Made by a program: the position numbers and the translations under genes
Assembly: GCA_005880615.1 (NCBI GenBank)
Contig: VBID01000115.1
Coordinates: 16,431 to 80,430, forward strand
Length of the DNA stretch: 64,000 bases
Source: Chloroflexota bacterium
GTDB lineage: Bacteria > Chloroflexota > Dormibacteria > CF-121
Reading direction: 5' to 3'
Part shown: positions 12,527 through 62,818 of the stretch, in pieces
Layout: each line of letters opens with the position of its first letter
Position numbering within the stretch: the first letter of the stretch is position 1
The notes under the pieces: generated by a model
What the model was told of the DNA's origin: nothing
Seen by the model: only the letters and a program-made list of their open reading frames with translations
Databases searched by the model: none

Positions 12527-12660
12527 ACTCTTCGAGACCCCCTCCCCAACCCTCCCCGCAAGGGGGAGGGAGAGTGAATGGCTCCGCCCAAGGGGGAGGG
12601 AGAGAAAGAGACGAGACCCCTCCCTGCTCTCCCCGCCAACGGCGAGGGGTTCTTGAAACA
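12527..12660. repeat. cluster of three GC-rich hairpin element copies downstream of liv operon
   Basis: GAGACCCCCTCCCCAACCCTCCCCGCAAGGGGGAGGGAGAG, then CTCCGCCCAAGGGGGAGGGAGAG, then GAGACCCCTCCCTGCTCTCCCCGCCAACGGCGAGGGG; lies between convergent genes. Confidence 0.8.
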
Positions 12661-13643: not shown

Positions 13644-13826
13644 AGCCCGGATCCACCGAGCGGACGAAGCAGATTGGGATGCGGGGCCAGATGAGCCGAA
13701 GGCGGCGACGAGCACGCGAAGGCGCGCACCCGTCGGTGCGTAACTGAGCGCGCGTCAGAGCCAACGCACGGATCGCTCGCATCCGCGCCCAAGATGCGAG
13801 TTGGTTTCGGTGGACGCGGGCTTAGG
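13644..13826. mobile_element. MITE-like element, copy A (TIR AGCCCGGATCCACCGAGCGGACGA ... TCGGTGGACGCGGGCTTAGG)
   Basis: Imperfect ~25-bp terminal inverted repeats shared with copies at 22724, 29586, 36365 and 57644; one internal unit containing the hairpin GCACC-CGTC-GGTGC. The cupin gene's stop codon (13822-13824) lies in the right TIR. Confidence 0.75.
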
Positions 13827-16675: not shown

Positions 16676-16714
16676 AATACCCCCACCCCACCCTCCCCGC
16701 AAGGGGGAGGGAAA
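16676..16714. repeat. GC-rich hairpin element copy inside the manC-gmd intergenic spacer (same operon)
   Basis: ACCCCCACCCCACCCTCCCCGCAAGGGGGAGGGAAAGG. Confidence 0.8.
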
Positions 16715-22723: not shown

Positions 22724-22787
22724 TAGCCCGGGTCCGCCGATCGGACGACGCAGATACGAGTTCGATTCGGTGGACGTCGGCTTATTC
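22724..22787. mobile_element. mini MITE copy (left and right TIRs only, ~64 bp)
   Basis: TAGCCCGGGTCCGCCGATCGGACGACGCAG + ATACGAGTTCGATTCGGTGGACGTCGGCTTA; the marR stop codon (22782-22784) is the TAA of the right TIR. Confidence 0.7.
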
Positions 22788-27124: not shown

Positions 27125-28540
27125 CTACGGGATCAGCCCCTTACGGATGACCCGCCACTCGTCCGCGTCGACGGCGCGCAGCAACACCAACGCCACCGCG
27201 TACACGGCGGCCCCAACCAGGATCACCAGGACAACGGGCCAGGATCGAAGCAGCAGGACGGCGAGGCCCATCACGCCGCCACTCAGGAGGATGCGGGCGA
27301 TGCCGCGCACCACCGGCAGCGCGTACAGGTGGCGACGCAGCAACCACCAGCCGCCCAAAAAGAGCGCCAGCTCGGTGAGGACCGCGGCCCAGCTGGCGCC
27401 GAGGTATCCGAACGGCGGAATCAGGGCCAGGTTGAGAACCACATTGACCACCAGGGTGGCCAGCGCCAGCCGGGTGAAGTCGGCCTGGCGGTTGATCGCC
27501 GTGAGCGTATAGATGAAAGCATTGTTCAAGAAGAGGAAGACCACCGAGAGCGCCAGGATGGCCAGGGCGGGGATGGTTTGCTCGTAGCCGCGGACGGCGT
27601 GCACCAGCGCAGGCGCCGTGAGGGCAATGCCCACCGCCAGCGGGACCCCCACTACGGCCAGCAGGCGGTAGGACTTCTGGTAGGCGAGCGAGAGGCGGTC
27701 CTTGCCGGAGACCGACAGCAACGACAGAGCCGGGAAGACGGCGTTCATCGCCGTCTGCGGGATCCAGGCGATGGCGTCGACGTACTTGTTGGCGGCCACG
27801 TACCAGCCGACCATCCGGAAGTTGGTGAACAGCTGCAGCAGCACGACATCGACCTGGGCGTAGATGCTGGTGATGACAAAGCCGAGGGCGAGGGGTGCGC
27901 CGCTCCGTAGGACATCGCGCAGGAAGCCCAGGTCGAGGCGGGGCGACGGCCGCTCGCGCCAGATGCCGAAGATCACCCCCAGGGCCAGCAGGCAGGTGAA
28001 GAGGTAGCTGGCCGCATACACCCAGAGGAAGGCGTCCCATGACGCCCGATGGCCGACGGCGTACAGGGTCAGTCCCAGCAGGACAGCGGCCTCACCCAGG
28101 ATGGCCACCACCTCATAGCCCAGCGTGCCCCGCGCGTAGAACGCGGAGCGGAGGAGACCCGAGTAGGAAACGGTGATCAGCAGCACGAACGCCCCCAGCG
28201 TGAACGGGAACAGCGCCGGCGCCAGCAGGCGCAACGCCCCCGCCAGCACCAGGCCGGAGAGGACCAGGAGCAGCAAACGGACGCTGATCAGGTTGCCGAG
28301 ATAGCGGTCGAATACGGCTCGGTCGCGGGCCACGTCCCGGACAAAGACGGTCTGCGTCCCAAGGTCGGCCAGCAGCTGGGCCAGGCTGACGTACACGATC
28401 ATCGCCCCGAAGCGCCCGTACTCGGCGTCGGCGAGGTGACGCCAGAGCAGGACCACCACCACGAACGTCGCGACCTTGGCCACGGCGCGACTGCCGACCA
28501 CCAGGGCGGTGTTGCGAAAGGTGCGGCTAGCGAGACTCAC
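27125..28540 (-). CDS. MOP-superfamily polysaccharide flippase (Wzx/MATE-like)
   Basis: 471 aa, ~14 TM; N-terminal NTALVVGSRAVAKVATFVVVVLLWRHL typical of polysaccharide biosynthesis/export proteins. Confidence 0.75.
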   Translation of the reverse strand: MSLASRTFRNTALVVGSRAVAKVATFVVVVLLWRHLADAEYGRFGAMIVYVSLAQLLADLGTQTVFVRDVARDRAVFDRYLGNLISVRLLLLVLSGLVLAGALRLLAPALFPFTLGAFVLLITVSYSGLLRSAFYARGTLGYEVVAILGEAAVLLGLTLYAVGHRASWDAFLWVYAASYLFTCLLALGVIFGIWRERPSPRLDLGFLRDVLRSGAPLALGFVITSIYAQVDVVLLQLFTNFRMVGWYVAANKYVDAIAWIPQTAMNAVFPALSLLSVSGKDRLSLAYQKSYRLLAVVGVPLAVGIALTAPALVHAVRGYEQTIPALAILALSVVFLFLNNAFIYTLTAINRQADFTRLALATLVVNVVLNLALIPPFGYLGASWAAVLTELALFLGGWWLLRRHLYALPVVRGIARILLSGGVMGLAVLLLRSWPVVLVILVGAAVYAVALVLLRAVDADEWRVIRKGLIP

Positions 28541-28556
28541 GTGTCACGCCGGGATT

Positions 28557-29588
28557 ATGAACGGTTACGATTTGCGGACCATGGGCTCCCCCAAACCCCG
28601 CGTGTTTTCCGGCATCCAGCCCAGCGGCGGGTTGCACCTGGGCAACTACCTGGGCGCCATCCGCAACTGGGTCCGCGACCAGGACAAGTACGACAACATC
28701 TTCTGCGTCGTCGACCTGCATGCGATGACCCTACCCTGGGATCCGAAGCTCCTCCGGGAGAACACCCTCCAGGTGGCGGCCGTCTACCTGGCCTGCGGCA
28801 TCCGCCAGGACACCTCCACCATTTTTGTCCAGTCGCGGATCCCGGCCCACTCCGAGCTGGCCTGGATCCTCACCTGCCTGACCCCGATGGGCTGGCTGGA
28901 GCGGATGACCCAGTTCAAGGAGAAAAGCGCCGGCGAGCAGCGCGAACGGGTGGGCACCGGCCTGCTGACCTACCCGGCGTTGATGGCCGCCGACATCCTG
29001 CTGTACGAAACCAATTTCGTGCCGGTCGGCGAGGACCAGCGCCAGCACATCGAGTACACTCGCGACATTGCCCAGCGGGTCAATCAGCGATTCGGCCAGG
29101 TCCTCACCCTGCCCGAGGCCCTGATTCCCAAGGCAGGCGCCCGGATCATGGGACTGGACGACCCGGAACGGAAGATGAGCAAGACCCTGGCCCAGGCGAA
29201 TCCGGGCCATGCCGTCTTCCTGACCGACCCGCCGGAGGTGATCCGCAAGAAGTTTGCCCGCGCCCAAACCGACGCCGAGCCCGCCGTTCGCTTCCCGCCC
29301 GGCCCGGGAGTCGCCAACCTGCTCCAGATCTACCAGTCGGTCACGGAAACGACGGCCGAGAACCTGGAGCGCACCTTCGCCGGCAAGTCGTACAACGAGC
29401 TCAAGCAGGCCGTGGCCGAAGCCGTCATCGCGGCCCTGCGCCCCATCCAGGAGCGCTATCGTGAGATCCGGTCCGACGACGCGCAACTGGTCCGCGACCT
29501 GGACCGGGCGGCCGACCGGCTGGCGGTGACAGCCAACGCGACGCTGGCGCGCGTGCAGCGGGTGACGGGATTGCTGGGCCATGACTAA
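28557..29588 (+). CDS. trpS: tryptophanyl-tRNA synthetase
   Basis: Class I aaRS: FSGIQPSGGLHLGNY (HIGH-like), KMSKT. Start at ATG 28557 or 28581; the upstream part of ORF 28476..29588 overlaps the divergent flippase gene. The TAA stop is the first three bases of MITE copy B. Confidence 0.9.
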   Translation: MNGYDLRTMGSPKPRVFSGIQPSGGLHLGNYLGAIRNWVRDQDKYDNIFCVVDLHAMTLPWDPKLLRENTLQVAAVYLACGIRQDTSTIFVQSRIPAHSELAWILTCLTPMGWLERMTQFKEKSAGEQRERVGTGLLTYPALMAADILLYETNFVPVGEDQRQHIEYTRDIAQRVNQRFGQVLTLPEALIPKAGARIMGLDDPERKMSKTLAQANPGHAVFLTDPPEVIRKKFARAQTDAEPAVRFPPGPGVANLLQIYQSVTETTAENLERTFAGKSYNELKQAVAEAVIAALRPIQERYREIRSDDAQLVRDLDRAADRLAVTANATLARVQRVTGLLGHD

Positions 29589-29745
29589 GCCCGGATCCGC
29601 CGATCGGACGACGCAGATTGGGATGCGGGACGAGCTGAGCGGAAGGAAGCGACCAGCACGCGCAGGCGCCCTGGCAGCGGCTGAGCCTGGTCAATCCCGA
29701 CCAGGACTGCGCTAGCTCGTTGCTGGCGGTGGAGGGAGCCGTCGG
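29586..29745. mobile_element. MITE-like element, copy B (left TIR intact, right TIR degenerate)
   Basis: TAAGCCCGGATCCGCCGATCGGACGACGCAGATTGGGATGCGGG... shares >85% identity over the first ~60 bp with copies C and D. Confidence 0.7.
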
Positions 29746-29769: not shown

Positions 29770-30045
29770 GGAGGCGGATCAGAGGCAGATCGCCGCGCAC
29801 GCCGCTCAAGCTAAGCGGTCTTCCGAGTAAGTTCTGCTCGAGGTGCGGACCTTTGTCCAGGGACACCCCCACCCCTACCCTCCGCGCAAGGGGGAGGGAG
29901 AGTTAAGGTCGGAAGCAGATCGCCGCGTATGCTGCTCGAGCCAAGCGGTCTACTGGGTAAGTTCTGCTCGAGGTACGGGCCTTACTCCAAGGACACCCCC
30001 ACCCTTGCCCCTGCCCGCAAGGGAGAGGGAGAGGGGAAGGCGGCA
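29770..30045. repeat. two tandem ~130-bp units, each ending in a GC-rich hairpin element
   Basis: CAGATCGCCGCGYAYGCYGCTCRAGCYAAGCGGTCTWCYGRGTAAGTTCTGCTCGAGGTRCGGRCCTTWSTCCARGGACACCCCCACCC...GCAAGGG.GAGGGAGAG appears twice consecutively. Confidence 0.75.
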
Positions 30046-33823: not shown

Positions 33824-36367
33824 TTGAGCATACGGATCCCGCCTGTCGCTGCAGGATCACCCTTCGCCCGCCGCGCCCCGGACCTGGTGGCCCGGCGGAT
33901 TGCCGTCTCGGCCGCGCCCGATAGTCAGGCGGCTGCCTTGCTGGAGCACGCCGGGCCTGACGTCCTGACCCGCCTGATGACCGAGGCTACCGAGGGCGAC
34001 GGCTACGTCGACATCACAGCCACGCCCGTCCGCCTGACCCTTCACCTGCAGAAACGAACCACCACCTCCATCGAGCGCTTCGGCCTGCTCGGGAGCCTCT
34101 ACGGCACCGCCAGCAAAGACCTGGCCTTTGCCGTGGAGCGGCTGCAGCAGGACCCCGATCCGACCAAGGATGCCGGCGACATCCTCGCCATCGAGGTGGA
34201 GGAGGTGGTCCTGGACGCGCCGGCGTACTCGGCCGGTGACGATTGGGTGCAGCGGCGCCTGTGCGCGTTGCAGGAGGCCGCCTCCTTGCCGCTGGTGCTC
34301 GCCGGCCAGGAATTCGCCAACCACGAGCGCCAATGGCTGGCCAAGCAGGCCGAGCAGGACGCTCGCCCCTACGAAGTCGAAACCGAGGGCTTTATCTGCG
34401 GGAAGTGCGACAACCTCCAGCAAAACGGCCCGCGCTGCGCCGTCTGCGGGACTACCACCGGCGACCGGGCTGCCGGCGCGGTCATCGTGCTCAGCCGGCG
34501 AGGGGGCTTCAAAGAGGGCGACCGGGTGGTCATCACGCCCAGCGTGGGAAGCGAACGTGAAGGCCAGCTGCTGCGAGCCCAGGGCGGAGGCGGCCGGCGC
34601 TGGCTGGTCAAGTTACGCGACGAGGGTGCGCTTGGCCCGGGCACCATCCGGCCCCAGCCCATCACGGCCGTGGTCGAGGTCCAGCAGCGGACCCTCAACG
34701 GATTCGGAGCCGGCGACATCAGCCTGCGCCGGGTGGCGGCGCTGCTGATTGCGCCGGATGAGGTCCGGCCTCCGGTGGCCTCCGCCATCGAGCCGTTTGA
34801 CGCGCGGCTGAACCCCAGCCAGCGGGAAGCAGTCGCCGGCGGCACCGGGCTGCAGCCCGGCTCGATGATGCTGGTCCAGGGGCCACCCGGCACCGGCAAG
34901 ACCACCTCCATCGTGGAAACGGTGCGCCAGCTGGTGGCGCGCGACCCCGACGTCCGCATCCTCATGACCTCGCATGCCAACACCGCAGTGGACAACGCTC
35001 AGGAGCGGCTGCAGGGGCTGGACTCGCTCCGGATGGTACGCATCGCCGAGCCGGAGAAGGTGGACCCCAAGTTTCGCTCCAGCATCGTCGATTCCGACGA
35101 TCCACGGGTGCGCAGCGCGCACGTCGTGTTCGGCACCGTCAACCGGATCGCGCTGGCCTGCCGGGAGGCCGAAATGTTCGATTGGCTGATCCTGGACGAG
35201 GCCAACAAGGTGCGCTTCACGGAGACGCTGCCACTGCTGCGGTTGGCCCCCCGCTGGCTGCTGGTGGGTGACCACCGGCAGCTCCCGCCGGTGCTCGATG
35301 AGAGCGCAGCCGCCTTTCCGGTCGACGAGGACGAGGCCCGGGTGATGGTTCGGGATGCCAGCTTCTTCGAGCTCAGCTGGGCCGTCCTGCCGGAATCCAA
35401 CCTGGTGATGCTGGATGAGCAGTACCGGATGGCGGCGCCCATCGGGACCTACGTGTCGCAGGCGTCCTACGACGGGCGGCTCAAGAACAGCCCGGAGATG
35501 GGGGCCCTGCGCTCCCCGTTGCCCTGGCCCTTCAACCGCAACTTGACCTGGCTCACCATCCGCGGGCGCGAGAAGAAGAGCGGGTCCGGCAGCCTGAGCA
35601 ACCGGGCTGAGATCGAGGCCGTGGGACGCGTGGTCCGCCACCTGCAGCGGCTGGGCCTCGGCCATTTGAAGGTGGCCGTCATCGCCATGTACCAGGACCA
35701 GGTGACCCAGCTGCGACGGGAGCTGCGCACCATCGACCTGCCCGAGCTGTACGTCGATACCGTGGACGCCTTCGAGGGTGAGGAGGCGGACGTCGTCATC
35801 CTGAGCCTGGTCCGCAGCAACGAGGCCGAGCGCATCGGCTTCCTCAAGAAGGCACAGCGGCTGAACGTCGCCATCTCCCGCGCCAAGCACCTGCTGATCG
35901 TGGTCGGGGATATCGAGACGCTAACCGGGCGGGAAGGGCAGGACCTGTATCGGCCCCTGCTGGAGCACATCGAGCGTGAGGGCCGGGTGGCCGGCATTGG
36001 CGCCCTCCATGCCATGGACGCTGCCGCCGGTGGACGGCACCGAGATCGGCGCCGCGGGCGCGTTGGGCAACCCGCGGTCGGCCGTCGGGGACGGCGCCGC
36101 CGGCCCTATGTCGCCAGCGGGGCGGCGACCCCAGCCGTCAGTCCGAATGGCGCTGAGACGGCGGCTGAAGGCACGCCGGCCGGACCCGTCGCGGATGGGG
36201 CAGCCGGCCAGCCGACGGCCGCGCCGCGCCGGTTCAGACGTCGGCGAGGACGGCGGCGTGGGCCCGGCCGCCCACCGCTGAATGGGGAGGTGGGCCAGAC
36301 ACCAGCTGGCGAGCAGCCAGCCACGCCGGCCCAGCCCCAGCCGGCTCCGATCGCGCAGGCCGACTAA
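33824..36367 (+). CDS. Upf1-like/DNA2-like SF1B helicase with novel Zn-ribbon N-terminal domain and Arg/Gly-rich C-terminal tail
   Basis: Helicase motifs: I GPPGTGKTT, II LILDEANKV, III VGDHRQLPPV, IV DEQYRMAAPIGTYVSQASY, V/VI DAFEGEEADVVILSLVRSN...LNVAISRAKHLLIVVGD (AAA_11/AAA_12 architecture). The N-terminal ~330 aa has no recognised domain apart from a CGKCDN...CAVCG zinc ribbon. The last ~120 aa are low-complexity (RHRDRRRGRVGQPAVGRRGRRRRP...RRFRRRRGRRRGPGRP). The stop TAA is the first triplet of MITE copy C. Confidence 0.8.
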   Translation: MSIRIPPVAAGSPFARRAPDLVARRIAVSAAPDSQAAALLEHAGPDVLTRLMTEATEGDGYVDITATPVRLTLHLQKRTTTSIERFGLLGSLYGTASKDLAFAVERLQQDPDPTKDAGDILAIEVEEVVLDAPAYSAGDDWVQRRLCALQEAASLPLVLAGQEFANHERQWLAKQAEQDARPYEVETEGFICGKCDNLQQNGPRCAVCGTTTGDRAAGAVIVLSRRGGFKEGDRVVITPSVGSEREGQLLRAQGGGGRRWLVKLRDEGALGPGTIRPQPITAVVEVQQRTLNGFGAGDISLRRVAALLIAPDEVRPPVASAIEPFDARLNPSQREAVAGGTGLQPGSMMLVQGPPGTGKTTSIVETVRQLVARDPDVRILMTSHANTAVDNAQERLQGLDSLRMVRIAEPEKVDPKFRSSIVDSDDPRVRSAHVVFGTVNRIALACREAEMFDWLILDEANKVRFTETLPLLRLAPRWLLVGDHRQLPPVLDESAAAFPVDEDEARVMVRDASFFELSWAVLPESNLVMLDEQYRMAAPIGTYVSQASYDGRLKNSPEMGALRSPLPWPFNRNLTWLTIRGREKKSGSGSLSNRAEIEAVGRVVRHLQRLGLGHLKVAVIAMYQDQVTQLRRELRTIDLPELYVDTVDAFEGEEADVVILSLVRSNEAERIGFLKKAQRLNVAISRAKHLLIVVGDIETLTGREGQDLYRPLLEHIEREGRVAGIGALHAMDAAAGGRHRDRRRGRVGQPAVGRRGRRRRPYVASGAATPAVSPNGAETAAEGTPAGPVADGAAGQPTAAPRRFRRRRGRRRGPGRPPLNGEVGQTPAGEQPATPAQPQPAPIAQAD

Positions 36368-36721
36368 GCCCGGATCCGCCGATCGGACGACGCAGCTTGG
36401 GATGTCCGGCGAGATGAGCGGTAGGAGGCGACGAGCACACGCAGGAGCGCACCTGAATGGTGCCTAACCGAGCGCGCGCAGGAGACGACACCCGGAGCCC
36501 GGGGCCGTCGGACGAACGAAGCAGATTGGGATGCGGGGCGTGCCGAGCCGCAGGAGGCGACGAGCACGCGAGGGAGCGCATCCGTCGATGCGTGACTGAG
36601 CGCGCGCAGGAGACGACGCCCGGATCGGCCGCAGCCGCGCCCAAGATGCGAGTTTGTTCCGGCGGCCTCGGGCTCAGCTCGCCCGGCGCCCAGGAGGCAA
36701 GTTCGATTCGGTGGATTCGGC
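36365..36721. mobile_element. MITE-like element, copy C (two internal ~125-bp tandem units)
   Basis: Left TIR TAAGCCCGGATCCGCCGATCGGACGA; right TIR (reverse complement) GGCCGAATCCACCGAATCGAAC; ~90% identical to copy D throughout. Confidence 0.8.
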
Positions 36722-36726
36722 CGTGA

Positions 36727-37659
36727 CTAGCTCGTCTTCGCCGGCGGCCCGCCCGCAGGGGCCGCGTCGAGCACCCCGCGGAGTGCCTGGACGGCACCGA
36801 GCAAGCCCATGGACTCGTAGGGCACGACGATCTTGGAATTGTCGCTGGCCGCGAACTTGCTGAGCGTATCGAGCTGCAGGATGGAGACCAGGGTTGGATC
36901 CGGAGCGGCGTCGTGGATTGCCTTGTAGACCGTGGCAATGGCCTGGCCCCGGCCTTCGGCTTCGAGAATGGTCGCCTGGCGAATGCCCTCGGCGCGCAGG
37001 ATGGCCGCCTGCCTCTCCCCTTCCGCGTTCTTGATGGCGGCCTGCTTGGCGCCGTCGGCAATGTTGACGGCCGATTGCTGCTGTCCCTCCGACTTGAGGA
37101 TGAGAGCCCGCTTCTCCTGGTCGGCCGTCTTCTGGAGCGCCAGGGCGTTCAAGATCTGCTGGGGCGGCGCGATGTCGACGATCTCGATCCGGTTGATCCG
37201 GATCCCCCATTTGTCGGTGACCGATTCCATCTGTTGTTGGAGTTGGGCGTTGATGCGCTCCCGCTGGCTGAGGGCCTCATCCAGGGTCATCCCACCGAAG
37301 ATGGCCCGCAGGGTGGTCCGGGAGAGCTGGTCAATAGCGATGAAGTAGTTGCTGACACTGAAGAGGGCCAGCTTGGCATCAACCACCTGGCTGAAGATGG
37401 TGGCGTTCACGCTGACCGTGACGTTGTCGCGCGTGATGACGTCCTGCTTGTCGCCGGTGCGAGGCGTTTCGCGGATGTCCACTAGCTGCAGGTCGTCGAT
37501 CAGCGGGACCAGGAACACCACGCCCGGCGGGCGCGAGCCGAGGAACTGGCCGAGCCGCTTGATGACGCCCACGTAGCCCTGCTGCACGATGCGGACGGTC
37601 CGGGCGATGACCAGGATGATCAGGAGGACGAGAATCCCGATGAAGATGGCGAGGCCCAT
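36727..37659 (-). CDS. SPFH/band-7 protein (stomatin/prohibitin-like)
   Basis: N-terminal TM anchor, SPFH domain (VQQGYVGVIKRLGQF...), coiled-coil Ala/Gln-rich C-terminal region. Confidence 0.9.
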   Translation of the reverse strand: MGLAIFIGILVLLIILVIARTVRIVQQGYVGVIKRLGQFLGSRPPGVVFLVPLIDDLQLVDIRETPRTGDKQDVITRDNVTVSVNATIFSQVVDAKLALFSVSNYFIAIDQLSRTTLRAIFGGMTLDEALSQRERINAQLQQQMESVTDKWGIRINRIEIVDIAPPQQILNALALQKTADQEKRALILKSEGQQQSAVNIADGAKQAAIKNAEGERQAAILRAEGIRQATILEAEGRGQAIATVYKAIHDAAPDPTLVSILQLDTLSKFAASDNSKIVVPYESMGLLGAVQALRGVLDAAPAGGPPAKTS

Positions 37660-39136: not shown

Positions 39137-39213
39137 TGGTGCCCTCGGCAGGACTCGAACCTGCGACGCCCGCCTTAGGACGGCGGCGCTCTGGTCCCCT
39201 GAGCTACGAGGGC
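39137..39213 (-). tRNA. tRNA-Arg (anticodon CCT), CCA encoded
   Basis: Reverse complement GCCCTCGTAGCTCAGGGGACCAGAGCGCCGCCGTCCTAAGGCGGGCGTCGCAGGTTCGAGTCCTGCCGAGGGCACCA. 7-bp acceptor stem, D arm GCTC/GAGC, anticodon stem CCGCC/GGCGG with loop GTCCTAA, T-loop TTCGAGT. Confidence 0.9.
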
Positions 39214-39284: not shown

Positions 39285-39360
39285 TCGGGGCGTAGCTCAG
39301 CCAGGTTAGAGCGCACGGTTCGGGACCGTGAGGTCGGTGGTTCAAATCCACTCGCCCCGA
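39285..39360 (+). tRNA. tRNA-Pro (anticodon CGG)
   Basis: CGGGGCGTAGCTCAGCCAGGTTAGAGCGCACGGTTCGGGACCGTGAGGTCGGTGGTTCAAATCCACTCGCCCCGA. Acceptor CGGGGCG/CGCCCCG, anticodon loop TTCGGGA, T-loop TTCAAAT; no encoded CCA. Confidence 0.9.
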
Positions 39361-57643: not shown

Positions 57644-58005
57644 AAGCCCGGATCCACCGATCGGACGATGCAGCTTGGGATGCCCGGCGAGATGAGCGGT
57701 AGGAGGCGACGAGCACGCGAAGGAGCGCACCTGAATGGTGCGTGACTGAGCGCGCGCAGGAGACGACACCCGGAGCCCGGGGCCGTCGGACGAACGAAGC
57801 AGATTGGGAGGCGGGGCGTGCCGAGCCGCAGGAGGCGACGAGCACGCGAGGGAGCGCATCCGTCGATGCGTGGCCGAGCGCGCGCAGGAGACGACGACCG
57901 GATCGGCCGCAGCCGCGCCCAAGATGCGAGTTTGTTCCGGCGGCCTCGGGCTCAGCTCGCCCGGCGCCCAAGATGCAAGTTCGATTCGGTGGATCCGGGC
58001 TTAGG
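57644..58005. mobile_element. MITE-like element, copy D (two internal tandem units; best-preserved TIRs)
   Basis: Left AAGCCCGGATCCACCGATCGGACGA; right (reverse complement) AAGCCCGGATCCACCGAATCGAACT; internal hairpins GCACC-TGAAT-GGTGC and GCATC-CGTC-GATGC. Confidence 0.8.
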
Positions 58006-61020: not shown

Positions 61021-61340
61021 TGATTCCCTCCCGCTTGCGGGAAAGCCCTTTTTCTCCCTCCCTTAGCGGAATGCCTTTTCTCCCTCCCCCTTGCGGGGAG
61101 CCACTGTCGTCAGGGTCGCGGGATTTCCCGCGTGGGCAGGGTTGGGAACGGGGTCTCGGTCACCTCGCATTAGGAGACTGGCTTGACCACGATTATCAAG
61201 ATGATGGCCAGCACGATCACTAGGAGCAGGGCCTGTTTTTCCGTCCTCCTTGCGGGGAGGCCTCTTTCTCCCTCCCCCTTGCGGGGAGGGTTGGGGAGGG
61301 GGTCTCGGTGACCTCGCGTTAGGAGACTGGCTTGACGACC
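61021..61340. repeat. array of GC-rich hairpin elements plus a ~180-bp tandem partial duplication of the 3' end of the downstream membrane-protein gene
   Basis: GGGGTCTCGGTCACCTCGCATTAGGAGACTGGCTTGACCACGATTATCAAGATGATGGCCAGCACGATCAC (61150-61222) repeats as GGGGGTCTCGGTGACCTCGCGTTAGGAGACTGGCTTGACGACCATCATGAAGATGATGGCCAGCACGATCAC (61298-61372). Three or more CCCTCCC...GCGGGGAG hairpins precede and separate them. ORF 61170..61538 is a remnant encoding only the C-terminal ...LLLVIVLAIILIIVVKPVS. Confidence 0.75.
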
Positions 61341-61771
61341 ATCATGAAGATGATGGCCAGCACGATCACGATGAGGATGATGCCGACCCGCTGTGCCTGC
61401 GCAGCCAACCGCTGATAGGCCGGCGAGGACTCCCCTTCCTTCTCGAGCACCTCGATCTGGCGGTTCATGGTCCGCGAGTAGAAGCCAACCGCCACCACGA
61501 TCAACAGAACGAATAGGAAGAGCGAGGAGATGATCCACCGCTTGAATCCCCAGCCCCCGACCCAGACCAGGGCGAGACCCGTCAGCAGCAGCAGGCCGTA
61601 AGCGGGATTCGCCACCCTCCGGTCGAGAAAGCTGACCCCGCGCAGGGCAAAGGACAGGTGTTCCTTTTCCCTGGCGCCTCTGGTGTTCCAGACCGCATAC
61701 GTGATGTTGGTGCCAACCGCCGTGATCCCCAGCAGCACATGGATGTACTTGAGCAGGAGATACCAGGTCAT
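61319..61771 (-). CDS. small 4-TM integral membrane protein (DUF2269-like, tentative), paralog 2
   Basis: MTWYLLLKYIHVLLGITAVGTNITYAVW...IIFMMVVKPVS (150 aa). The start ATG overlaps the stop of paralog 1 (ATGA). The upstream 326 codons of ORF 61319..62749 overlap paralog 1 out of frame and are rejected. Confidence 0.7.
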   Translation of the reverse strand: MTWYLLLKYIHVLLGITAVGTNITYAVWNTRGAREKEHLSFALRGVSFLDRRVANPAYGLLLLTGLALVWVGGWGFKRWIISSLFLFVLLIVVAVGFYSRTMNRQIEVLEKEGESSPAYQRLAAQAQRVGIILIVIVLAIIFMMVVKPVS

Positions 61772-62770: not shown

Positions 62771-62818
62771 TCTCCCTCCCCCTCAGGGGGAGGGTCGGGG
62801 TGGGGGTGTCGAGTGACT
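62771..62818. repeat. GC-rich hairpin element copy (reverse orientation) between convergent genes
   Basis: TCCCTCCCCCTCAGGGGGAGGGTCGGGGTGGGGGTGTCG. Confidence 0.8.

Follow-up and report, generated by a model that had tools for sequence, protein, structure and literature searches.

Covarying hairpins in a G+C-rich Chloroflexota repeat are probably the tips of a self-nesting, Tourist-like MITE

Intergenic imperfect palindromes of 100-200 bp that resemble MITEs include the Correia elements (NEMIS) of Neisseria and the ERIC sequences of enterobacteria. Once transcribed, they form long hairpins; Correia RNA is cut by RNase III, and ERIC alters mRNA decay involving RNase E (PMC10969869). The bcr1 repeat of the Bacillus cereus group, about 155 bp long and mobile, is flanked by direct repeats and transcribed, and compensatory changes keep its double-stranded structure, which is lost in some copies (PMC3184786). 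REPs, 20-40 bp in length, are marked by a GTAG or CGTC tag on one side and leave the target unduplicated (PMC3733652). Tourist-like MITEs of the IS5/PIF-Harbinger type are small, non-coding, multi-copy elements with terminal inverted repeats and T-N-A triplets (mostly TAA/TTA), and they insert into one another. The REP hairpin, for its part, is conserved because the RAYT transposase reads single-stranded DNA.

Here we analysed a repeat in a 64-kb stretch of DNA (the window), in which an earlier note had seen hairpins with compensatory base changes, and compared it with these systems. The repeat shares all of the above features with Tourist-like MITEs but differs from them in three respects: it is 68-70% G+C and not A+T-rich, its arms remain complementary far past the terminal repeats, and its self-nesting junction lacks a T-N-A duplication. 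Like Correia and ERIC, it is an intergenic, MITE-like imperfect palindrome of 100-200 bp; the RNA effects of those two were shown by experiment, and any RNA effect of the present element is hypothetical. Correia, moreover, contains promoters as well as an IHF site and generates a TA duplication, whereas the present element contains no promoter-like site and a TA duplication was rejected for it. Its likeness to bcr1 lies in being a mobile repeat with flanking direct repeats and compensatory changes, and bcr1 differs in its 5-bp direct repeats, its known transcription, its occurrence in another phylum and its lack of sequence similarity to our element. With REP/REPIN sequences it has in common G+C-rich, palindromic, clustered repeats. 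Membership in that group was rejected, as the element is 177 bp long with inverted ends and matched flanking triplets, has no GTAG foot, carries CGTC only as a tip loop, and no RAYT was seen. In the literature, we found no described MITE of Limnocylindria or Chloroflexi that matches this element.

Six MITE copies or remnants were located in the window. The three hairpins of the earlier note were found where it had placed them, in unit 1 of copy C, in unit 2 of copy C (repeated in copy D) and in copy A, but what it had taken for internal units of one element proved to be an outer element and, nested inside it, a diverged member of the family bounded by inverted ends of its own. Copy C lies in a 360-bp intergenic segment between the stops of the ORFs at 33824-36367 (+) and 36727-37659 (-). 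Its left flanking triplet, TAA (36365-36367, +), doubles as the stop codon of the first ORF, and the stop codon of the second adjoins its right end. The left part of the outer element (36368-36496, +) runs from the left inverted end GCCCGGATCC through the conserved core and the outer tip hairpin up to GACACCCGGA, and matched positions 9-142 of the nhmmer model. The tip hairpin (unit 1) is GCACC-TGAAT-GGTGC (36449-36463, +); a sixth pair (CGCACC/GGTGCG, present in copy D) has been lost through a G-to-C change at 36464. The inner element (36497-36673, +; 177 bp) gave a full-length nhmmer match, has its own inverted ends GCCCGGGGCCGTCGG and CCGGCGGCCTCGGGC, and carries the tip hairpin CGCATC-CGTC-GATGCG (unit 2; 36577-36592, +), lengthened by a G.T pair at 36576/36593. 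The right part of the outer element (36675-36722, +) closes with the degenerate right inverted end TTCGGTGGATTCGGCC. Copy C is crossed by a single ORF (36457-36726), whose ATG lies within the tip hairpin and is missing in the CACC/GGTG variants. We rejected AAGGAGG as a sign of a Shine-Dalgarno site or small ORF, because no start codon is suitably spaced from it and the one ATG falls in a variable stem.

Copy D (57646-58000, +), which lies between divergently oriented ORFs, is a two-layer composite like C, with its inner element at 57775-57951 and hairpins at 57726-57742 and 57855-57870. C and D both contain the hairpins, but they are identical at 340 of 357 positions and so are not independent, and we counted them as one observation of one composite. 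Copy A (13645-13821, +) is a single 177-bp element flanked by TCA and TTA, with the tip CGCACC-CGTC-GGTGCG at 13725-13740. The fourth full copy, B (1353-1527, -), is also single, with TAA on both sides (1528-1530 and 1350-1352), and its tip, CATATC-CATC-GATCTG, contains a T.C mismatch. A mini copy of 56 bp (22726-22781, +; flanks GTA and TTA) keeps both ends and has lost its interior, and a full-length copy occupies the orthologous position in metagenome contig L139 (614-796). The last is a truncated copy comprising the first ~83 bp of the left arm (29589-29671, +). It begins directly after the TAA stop of the ORF at 28476-29588, which we take to be a tryptophanyl-tRNA synthetase from its HLGN and KMSKT motifs, and it is cut short by a second, REP-like repeat family. 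This second, unrelated family of the window consists of a short REP-like palindrome, CCCTCCCCGCAAGGGGGAGGG, with 14 matches on both strands versus 0.54 expected, among them 12550-12570, 12580-12600, 16691-16711, 29878-29898, 30009-30029, 61026-61046, 61082-61102, 61241-61261, 61270-61290 and 62774-62794. The palindrome is often inside longer direct repeats (102 nt twice at 29779-30010; units of 52-75 nt at 61021-61350). As for the sequence blocks beside the MITE hairpins, whose conservation had been claimed, they recurred above chance (GGAGGCGACGAGCACRCG, 7 matches versus 0.66 expected; GAGCGCGCGCAGGAGACGAC, 5 versus 0.08).

To collect the family, genomes were scanned with the pattern GCGACGAGCMCRCG...GAGCGCGCG, which returned 110 loci (L001-L110) and was too loose. 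Among these loci, 92 pattern matches were outside the family, mostly antisense of a conserved DEAD-box helicase motif (...VLVATD..ARGID..., HG..SQ) in many phyla; short G+C-rich patterns are liable to catch conserved coding sequence in this way. The genome scan gave many copies in the Limnocylindria (Chloroflexota) metagenome-assembled genome (MAG) DASPZT01 and also picked out a few other Chloroflexota contigs, and the window was 96.8% identical to the Limnocylindria contig DASPZT010000376 across 6.4 kb. With a tighter three-block pattern, metagenome contigs yielded 109 soil contigs, every one genuine. An nhmmer profile built from 18 copies then gave 220 matches in 128 loci of the Limnocylindria MAG and soil metagenomes, comprising 162 units with the hairpin and 115 distinct full-length sequences; 72 representatives below 97% identity had a median pairwise identity of 84%. 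No similarity to the element was detected in plasmid records or viral contigs. Near-consensus copies also occurred in two loci, L030 and L110, binned as 'Candidatus Eisenbacteria' (SMAG_U11657), which is another phylum; L030 is orthologous to metagenome contig L178, which suggests mis-binning rather than transfer.

A full copy is ~177 bp long, starts with GCCCGGATCCACCGA and finishes with TCGGTGGATYCGGGC, with A/T-rich triplets outside. Its terminal inverted repeats are GCCCGG...CCGGGC, and helix 1 of the consensus (columns 3-25 with 163-186) was 97% paired. The interior core was at least as conserved as the ends, a figure inflated because both collection scans chose on interior blocks and their conservation is partly built in. 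Such conservation of the core is atypical of MITEs. In the most diverged member (L072), the arm sequences differ from the rest and are still mutually complementary. A related end sequence, AGCCCGGATACCCCGG, was seen outside the family matches (L166 at 1378, L119 at 3965, L135 at 4170, L175 at 3139, at least some of these contigs covering the same genomic locus), and such ends may belong to a sister MITE family with similar termini.

The compensatory change at the tip was evaluated in an alignment of 69 representatives below 97% identity by RNAalifold and by counting pairs on a fixed structure. Four of the seven tip positions switched from one Watson-Crick pair to another. The switch from C:G to T:A in the stem, noted before in a few copies, was general: pair 91-99 was U-A in 40 representatives and C-G in 27, with C.A intermediates in only 2. 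Pair 88-102 was G-C in 57 and A-U in 10, pair 87-103 was C-G in 67 and U-A in 1, and pair 86-104 was G.U in 66. In the stem below the tip, pair 82-108 was G-C in 39 and A-U in 26, and pair 83-107 was G-C in 54 and C-G in 14. The larger alignment, which the earlier note had proposed as a check, hence upheld compensatory pairing at 87-103, 88-102, 89-101 and 91-99 and, lower down, at 82-108 and 83-107. The full list of units added the tip variants CGTACC/GGTACG and TGCATC/GATGCA, with CGTACC/GGTGCG as a U.G intermediate. Some pairs of haplotypes differed at exactly two paired bases within 27 nt, for which the estimated chance is about 1-2% per event. The tip stem is not inviolate, since the subfamily CATATC/GATCTG keeps its T.C mismatch. 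On a neighbour-joining tree of the arms, pair 91-99 needed at least 14 state changes; we read these as mosaicism or a poorly resolved tree and not as 14 independent double substitutions, and therefore counted distinct switching positions instead of cells.

Covariation extended over the entire element. The consensus formed a rod of 57 pairs from the inverted ends to the tip, a hairpin of 6-7 bp, and in this 57-pair consensus 98.0% of the cells were paired, versus 92.2% in shuffles. Two-sided change was found at 30 pairs, compared with 14.8 ± 1.5 in shuffled alignments and 5-10 when the partners were slid, and in 240 cells versus 74 in shuffles. The copy C composite folded at -205 kcal/mol (z = -8), with the inner rod within the outer rod. 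Complementarity of the arms far beyond the terminal repeats means that either strand can snap back. As the covariation runs along the whole palindrome, terminal inverted repeats included, it is a property of a mobile-element foldback and not of a discrete RNA motif. The claim that covariation reflected selection on RNA structure thus held in its first half, that pairing is kept by compensatory change; selection for an RNA found no support, the same covariation being present along the whole element. The structure is real, and it appears to be selected as a property of mobile DNA, not as a demonstrated RNA.

The flanks were examined at 85 de-duplicated, non-nested sites, using the triplets outside GCCCGG...CCGGGC. 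Identical triplets flanked the element at 27 of the 85 sites, versus 10.9 ± 2.6 expected, and the middle base was correlated between the two sides: the pairings were (TAA,TAA) 17, (TTA,TTA) 8, (TCA,TCA) 2 and (TAA,TTA) 1, in an extended context C-TNA-G. PIF/Harbinger elements are distinguished by a 3-bp duplication (PMC2213677), and members of the IS1031 group of IS5 typically insert at 3-nt sites (PMC2516522). From its sequence, the flank pattern is a putative 3-bp T-N-A target duplication like that of IS5/PIF-Harbinger. A TA duplication of the IS630/Tc1 type was rejected, as (TAA,TTA) occurred once where about 8 were expected. The bases adjoining the ends (A on the left, T on the right) were 97-98% conserved and the outer T and A only about 62%, and the inner flank bases may travel with the element. 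A search of ~1.5 Mb of collected loci for end pairs 0.45-3.5 kb apart revealed no partner transposase with matching ends; on the evidence of the flanks only, an IS5/PIF-type DDE enzyme is proposed as the mobiliser. The single elements, at 177 bp and without coding capacity, are within the size range of prokaryotic MITEs (about 70-400 bp); as expected of MITEs, copies are many and dispersed, and strains differ in their presence or layer number.

Nesting was compared at the copy C locus (window 36365-36729), for which strains 93-99.8% identical were available. L133 (93% identical) has one layer, the single-unit orthologue of the copy C outer element; L023 has a deletion derivative; the window and L215 have two layers; and L187 (96.9% identical) has three, as L165 probably does. 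The junction of every nested copy was CCCGGA|GCCCGG...CGGGC|TCAGG, with GGA on the left and TCA on the right and without a T-N-A duplication. At one orthologous locus the strains differed in copy number by 128 or 178 bp, and one orthologous pair differed by exactly one 128-bp left part. Locus L183 contains four left parts followed by three right parts, and L187 three of each. Repeated independent nesting was rejected as the origin of the arrays: all junctions are identical and non-canonical, the parts in L183 are unequal, and a 128-bp left part alone accounts for one difference. Unequal recombination, starting from a single founding insertion of one element in another, probably accounts for at least part of the growth of the arrays.

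Taken together, the hairpins are probably the apical tips of a non-autonomous Tourist-like MITE of ~177 bp, whose foldback would be under selection in transposing source copies, with inserted ones left to decay. Of the three options in the earlier note (a 3'-UTR stability element, an sRNA or a transposition hairpin), the last fits best. The compensatory changes presumably distinguish subfamilies and arose in lineages of source copies that were still transposing. A transposase acting in trans would mobilise efficiently only sources with complementary arms, above all at the centre, and the tip may serve as the nucleation point of snap-back or cruciform extrusion, as would be expected from general knowledge of how inverted repeats extrude. 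Once inserted, a copy would be freed from the pairing constraint and decay; if transcribed, it would form a long RNA hairpin as a by-product and not as the cause of the conserved pairing. To our knowledge, DDE cut-and-paste enzymes do not require internal complementarity, so that the reason proposed here for the pairing constraint is conjectural.

The contrast between common and private variants is consistent with this proposal and bears on whether the host keeps the pairing. Variant pair-states common to at least three representatives still paired in 35 of 44 cases, compared with 26 of 60 singletons (Fisher p = 2.6e-4, RNAalifold pairs; metagenome assembly errors may be among the singletons). 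A variant common to paralogous copies is inherited from the source, so sources keep the pairing and inserted copies do not. The alternative is that the element is a cis-acting host RNA, in which a co-transcribed hairpin is targeted by RNase III or RNase E, stabilises the 3' end or terminates transcription, and the host maintains its pairing. In its favour are the very stable folds and real compensatory change, five pairs that are G.U in most copies, a top-strand RNA fold better by 16 kcal/mol on average, the precedents of Correia/ERIC (PMC10969869) and bcr1 (PMC3184786), and copies that begin right at a stop codon (copy C, copy B and the truncated one; the flanking triplet doubles as the neighbouring gene's stop codon at 13 of 85 sites family-wide). 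Private mutations tell against it, for they were not depleted in stems (0.51 singleton substitutions per paired column versus 0.49 per unpaired column) and most broke pairs (35 of the 60 in paired columns). Orthologous copies differed by 0.89%, compared with 0.99% for their 300-bp flanks, and the changes that break the outer tip stem at the copy C locus are not the same in the window as in L187. Genes were called at all loci with a simple high-G+C caller based on codon-position G+C, plausible on the window and not otherwise validated; among the 106 de-duplicated sites, these calls placed 18 in co-oriented and 23 in anti-oriented tandem settings, 17 between divergent genes and 12 between convergent ones. 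Orientation relative to genes was unbiased (18 versus 23, p = 0.53). Broken pairs per copy did not depend on an upstream co-directional gene (2.2 versus 2.3, p = 0.97), and copies between divergent genes were no more decayed than those elsewhere (1.5 broken pairs). No terminator-like T run was found in the element, and the excess of G.T over A.C was not significant under symmetric pairing. We therefore regard a host RNA as unlikely. The suggested 3'-UTR role may hold as a by-product in some contexts, while the tests of a host role by orientation, context and decay in situ lent it no support. Wherever a copy is transcribed, a host effect of the Correia, ERIC or bcr1 type may follow, and our data are explicable without one. 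The sRNA option, an independently transcribed small RNA gene family, is barely credible: it shares only the stable fold and the covariation, and it is opposed by the transposon-style ends and flanks, by the nested and truncated copies, and by the lack of promoter-like or terminator-like sites in the element. A search of Rfam 15, also proposed in the earlier note, matched no family on the element; even with E up to 10, the best scores were 11-17 bits (E = 1.3-7.3) to unrelated eukaryotic or viral families. The only matches in the window at Rfam gathering scores were two divergently oriented tRNAs at 39140-39213 (-) and 39286-39360 (+).

The least well explained observation is the strand asymmetry. 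A purely double-stranded-DNA reading does not predict a preference for the top strand. With RNA parameters, 113 of 115 copies had the better fold on the top strand (-110 versus -94 kcal/mol), and with DNA parameters 111 of 115 did. The 14 majority purine-purine mismatches are without exception on the top strand, and the stems contain no pyrimidine-pyrimidine mismatch. These data favour a single-strand-specific mobile element, one strand of which would have to fold into the rod to be processed, either in the form of single-stranded DNA by an HUH/tyrosine transposase (RAYT- or TIRYT-like) or in that of an RNA intermediate. Covariation along the whole rod would be expected from an enzyme that recognises hairpins, and long inverted-repeat families with tyrosine transposases have been described (PMC3733652). 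The correlated T-N-A triplets, however, resemble a staggered-cut duplication, the palindrome foot carries no GTAG/CGTC tag (CGTC occurs only as the tip loop), and no tyrosine transposase was seen near any copy. HUH transposition, as far as we know, makes no staggered-cut duplication. The mismatches, furthermore, come largely from two direct purine-rich motifs flanking the tip, AGGAGGCGACGAGC and AGGAGACGACGCC (AGGAGRCGACG), and so the asymmetry is essentially one inherited feature and may count as a single event. A strand-specific marker for RNA was also sought in the excess of G.U over A.C. It seemed strong on RNAalifold pairs; with symmetric pairing, in which the consensus is aligned to its own reverse complement, G.T still exceeded A.C in cells (484 versus 227), but by pairs the difference was 28 versus 19 and not significant, and the marker was rejected. 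We consider such a single-strand-specific element very improbable. The related proposal that the top strand, as single-stranded DNA or RNA, is the form on which the mobilising enzyme acts, so that movement is hairpin-dependent and strand-specific despite the look of an ordinary inverted-repeat MITE, is improbable. Selection might also be dispensed with altogether, if the arms were homogenised at the DNA level: a palindrome extruded as a hairpin in replication would have its mismatches corrected against the opposite arm (quasi-palindrome correction or template switching), and compensatory pairs would arise mechanically. The covariation does cover the entire palindrome rather than a functional sub-motif, and the intermediates at switching pairs are divided about evenly between G.T and A.C, both of which fit homogenisation. 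Correction should nevertheless erase the non-Watson-Crick sites that persist at 84% median identity: G.T at 86-104 (66 of 69 representatives), T.G at 41-150 (64 of 69), tandem G.A/A.G at 32-33/156-157 (64-66 of 69) and A.C at 76-114 (67 of 69). Singletons, too, mostly stay uncorrected, and we hold this account to be quite improbable.

The Tourist-like MITE, with its ends, target, consensus fold and nesting, constitutes a new defined repeat family for annotating Limnocylindria and related soil Chloroflexota, in whose genomes repeats of this kind fragment assemblies and give rise to spurious ORFs. Strains that are 93-97% identical differ in the number of layers at one locus, which could be used as a strain marker. 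If the strand-specific route were true, the two AGGAGRCGACG motifs around the tip would be a recognition module and not filler. More generally, covariation among paralogous copies of a mobile element is no evidence for a host RNA, and the contrast of common with private variants, combined with orientation and context, separates what an element needs to spread from what the cell needs.
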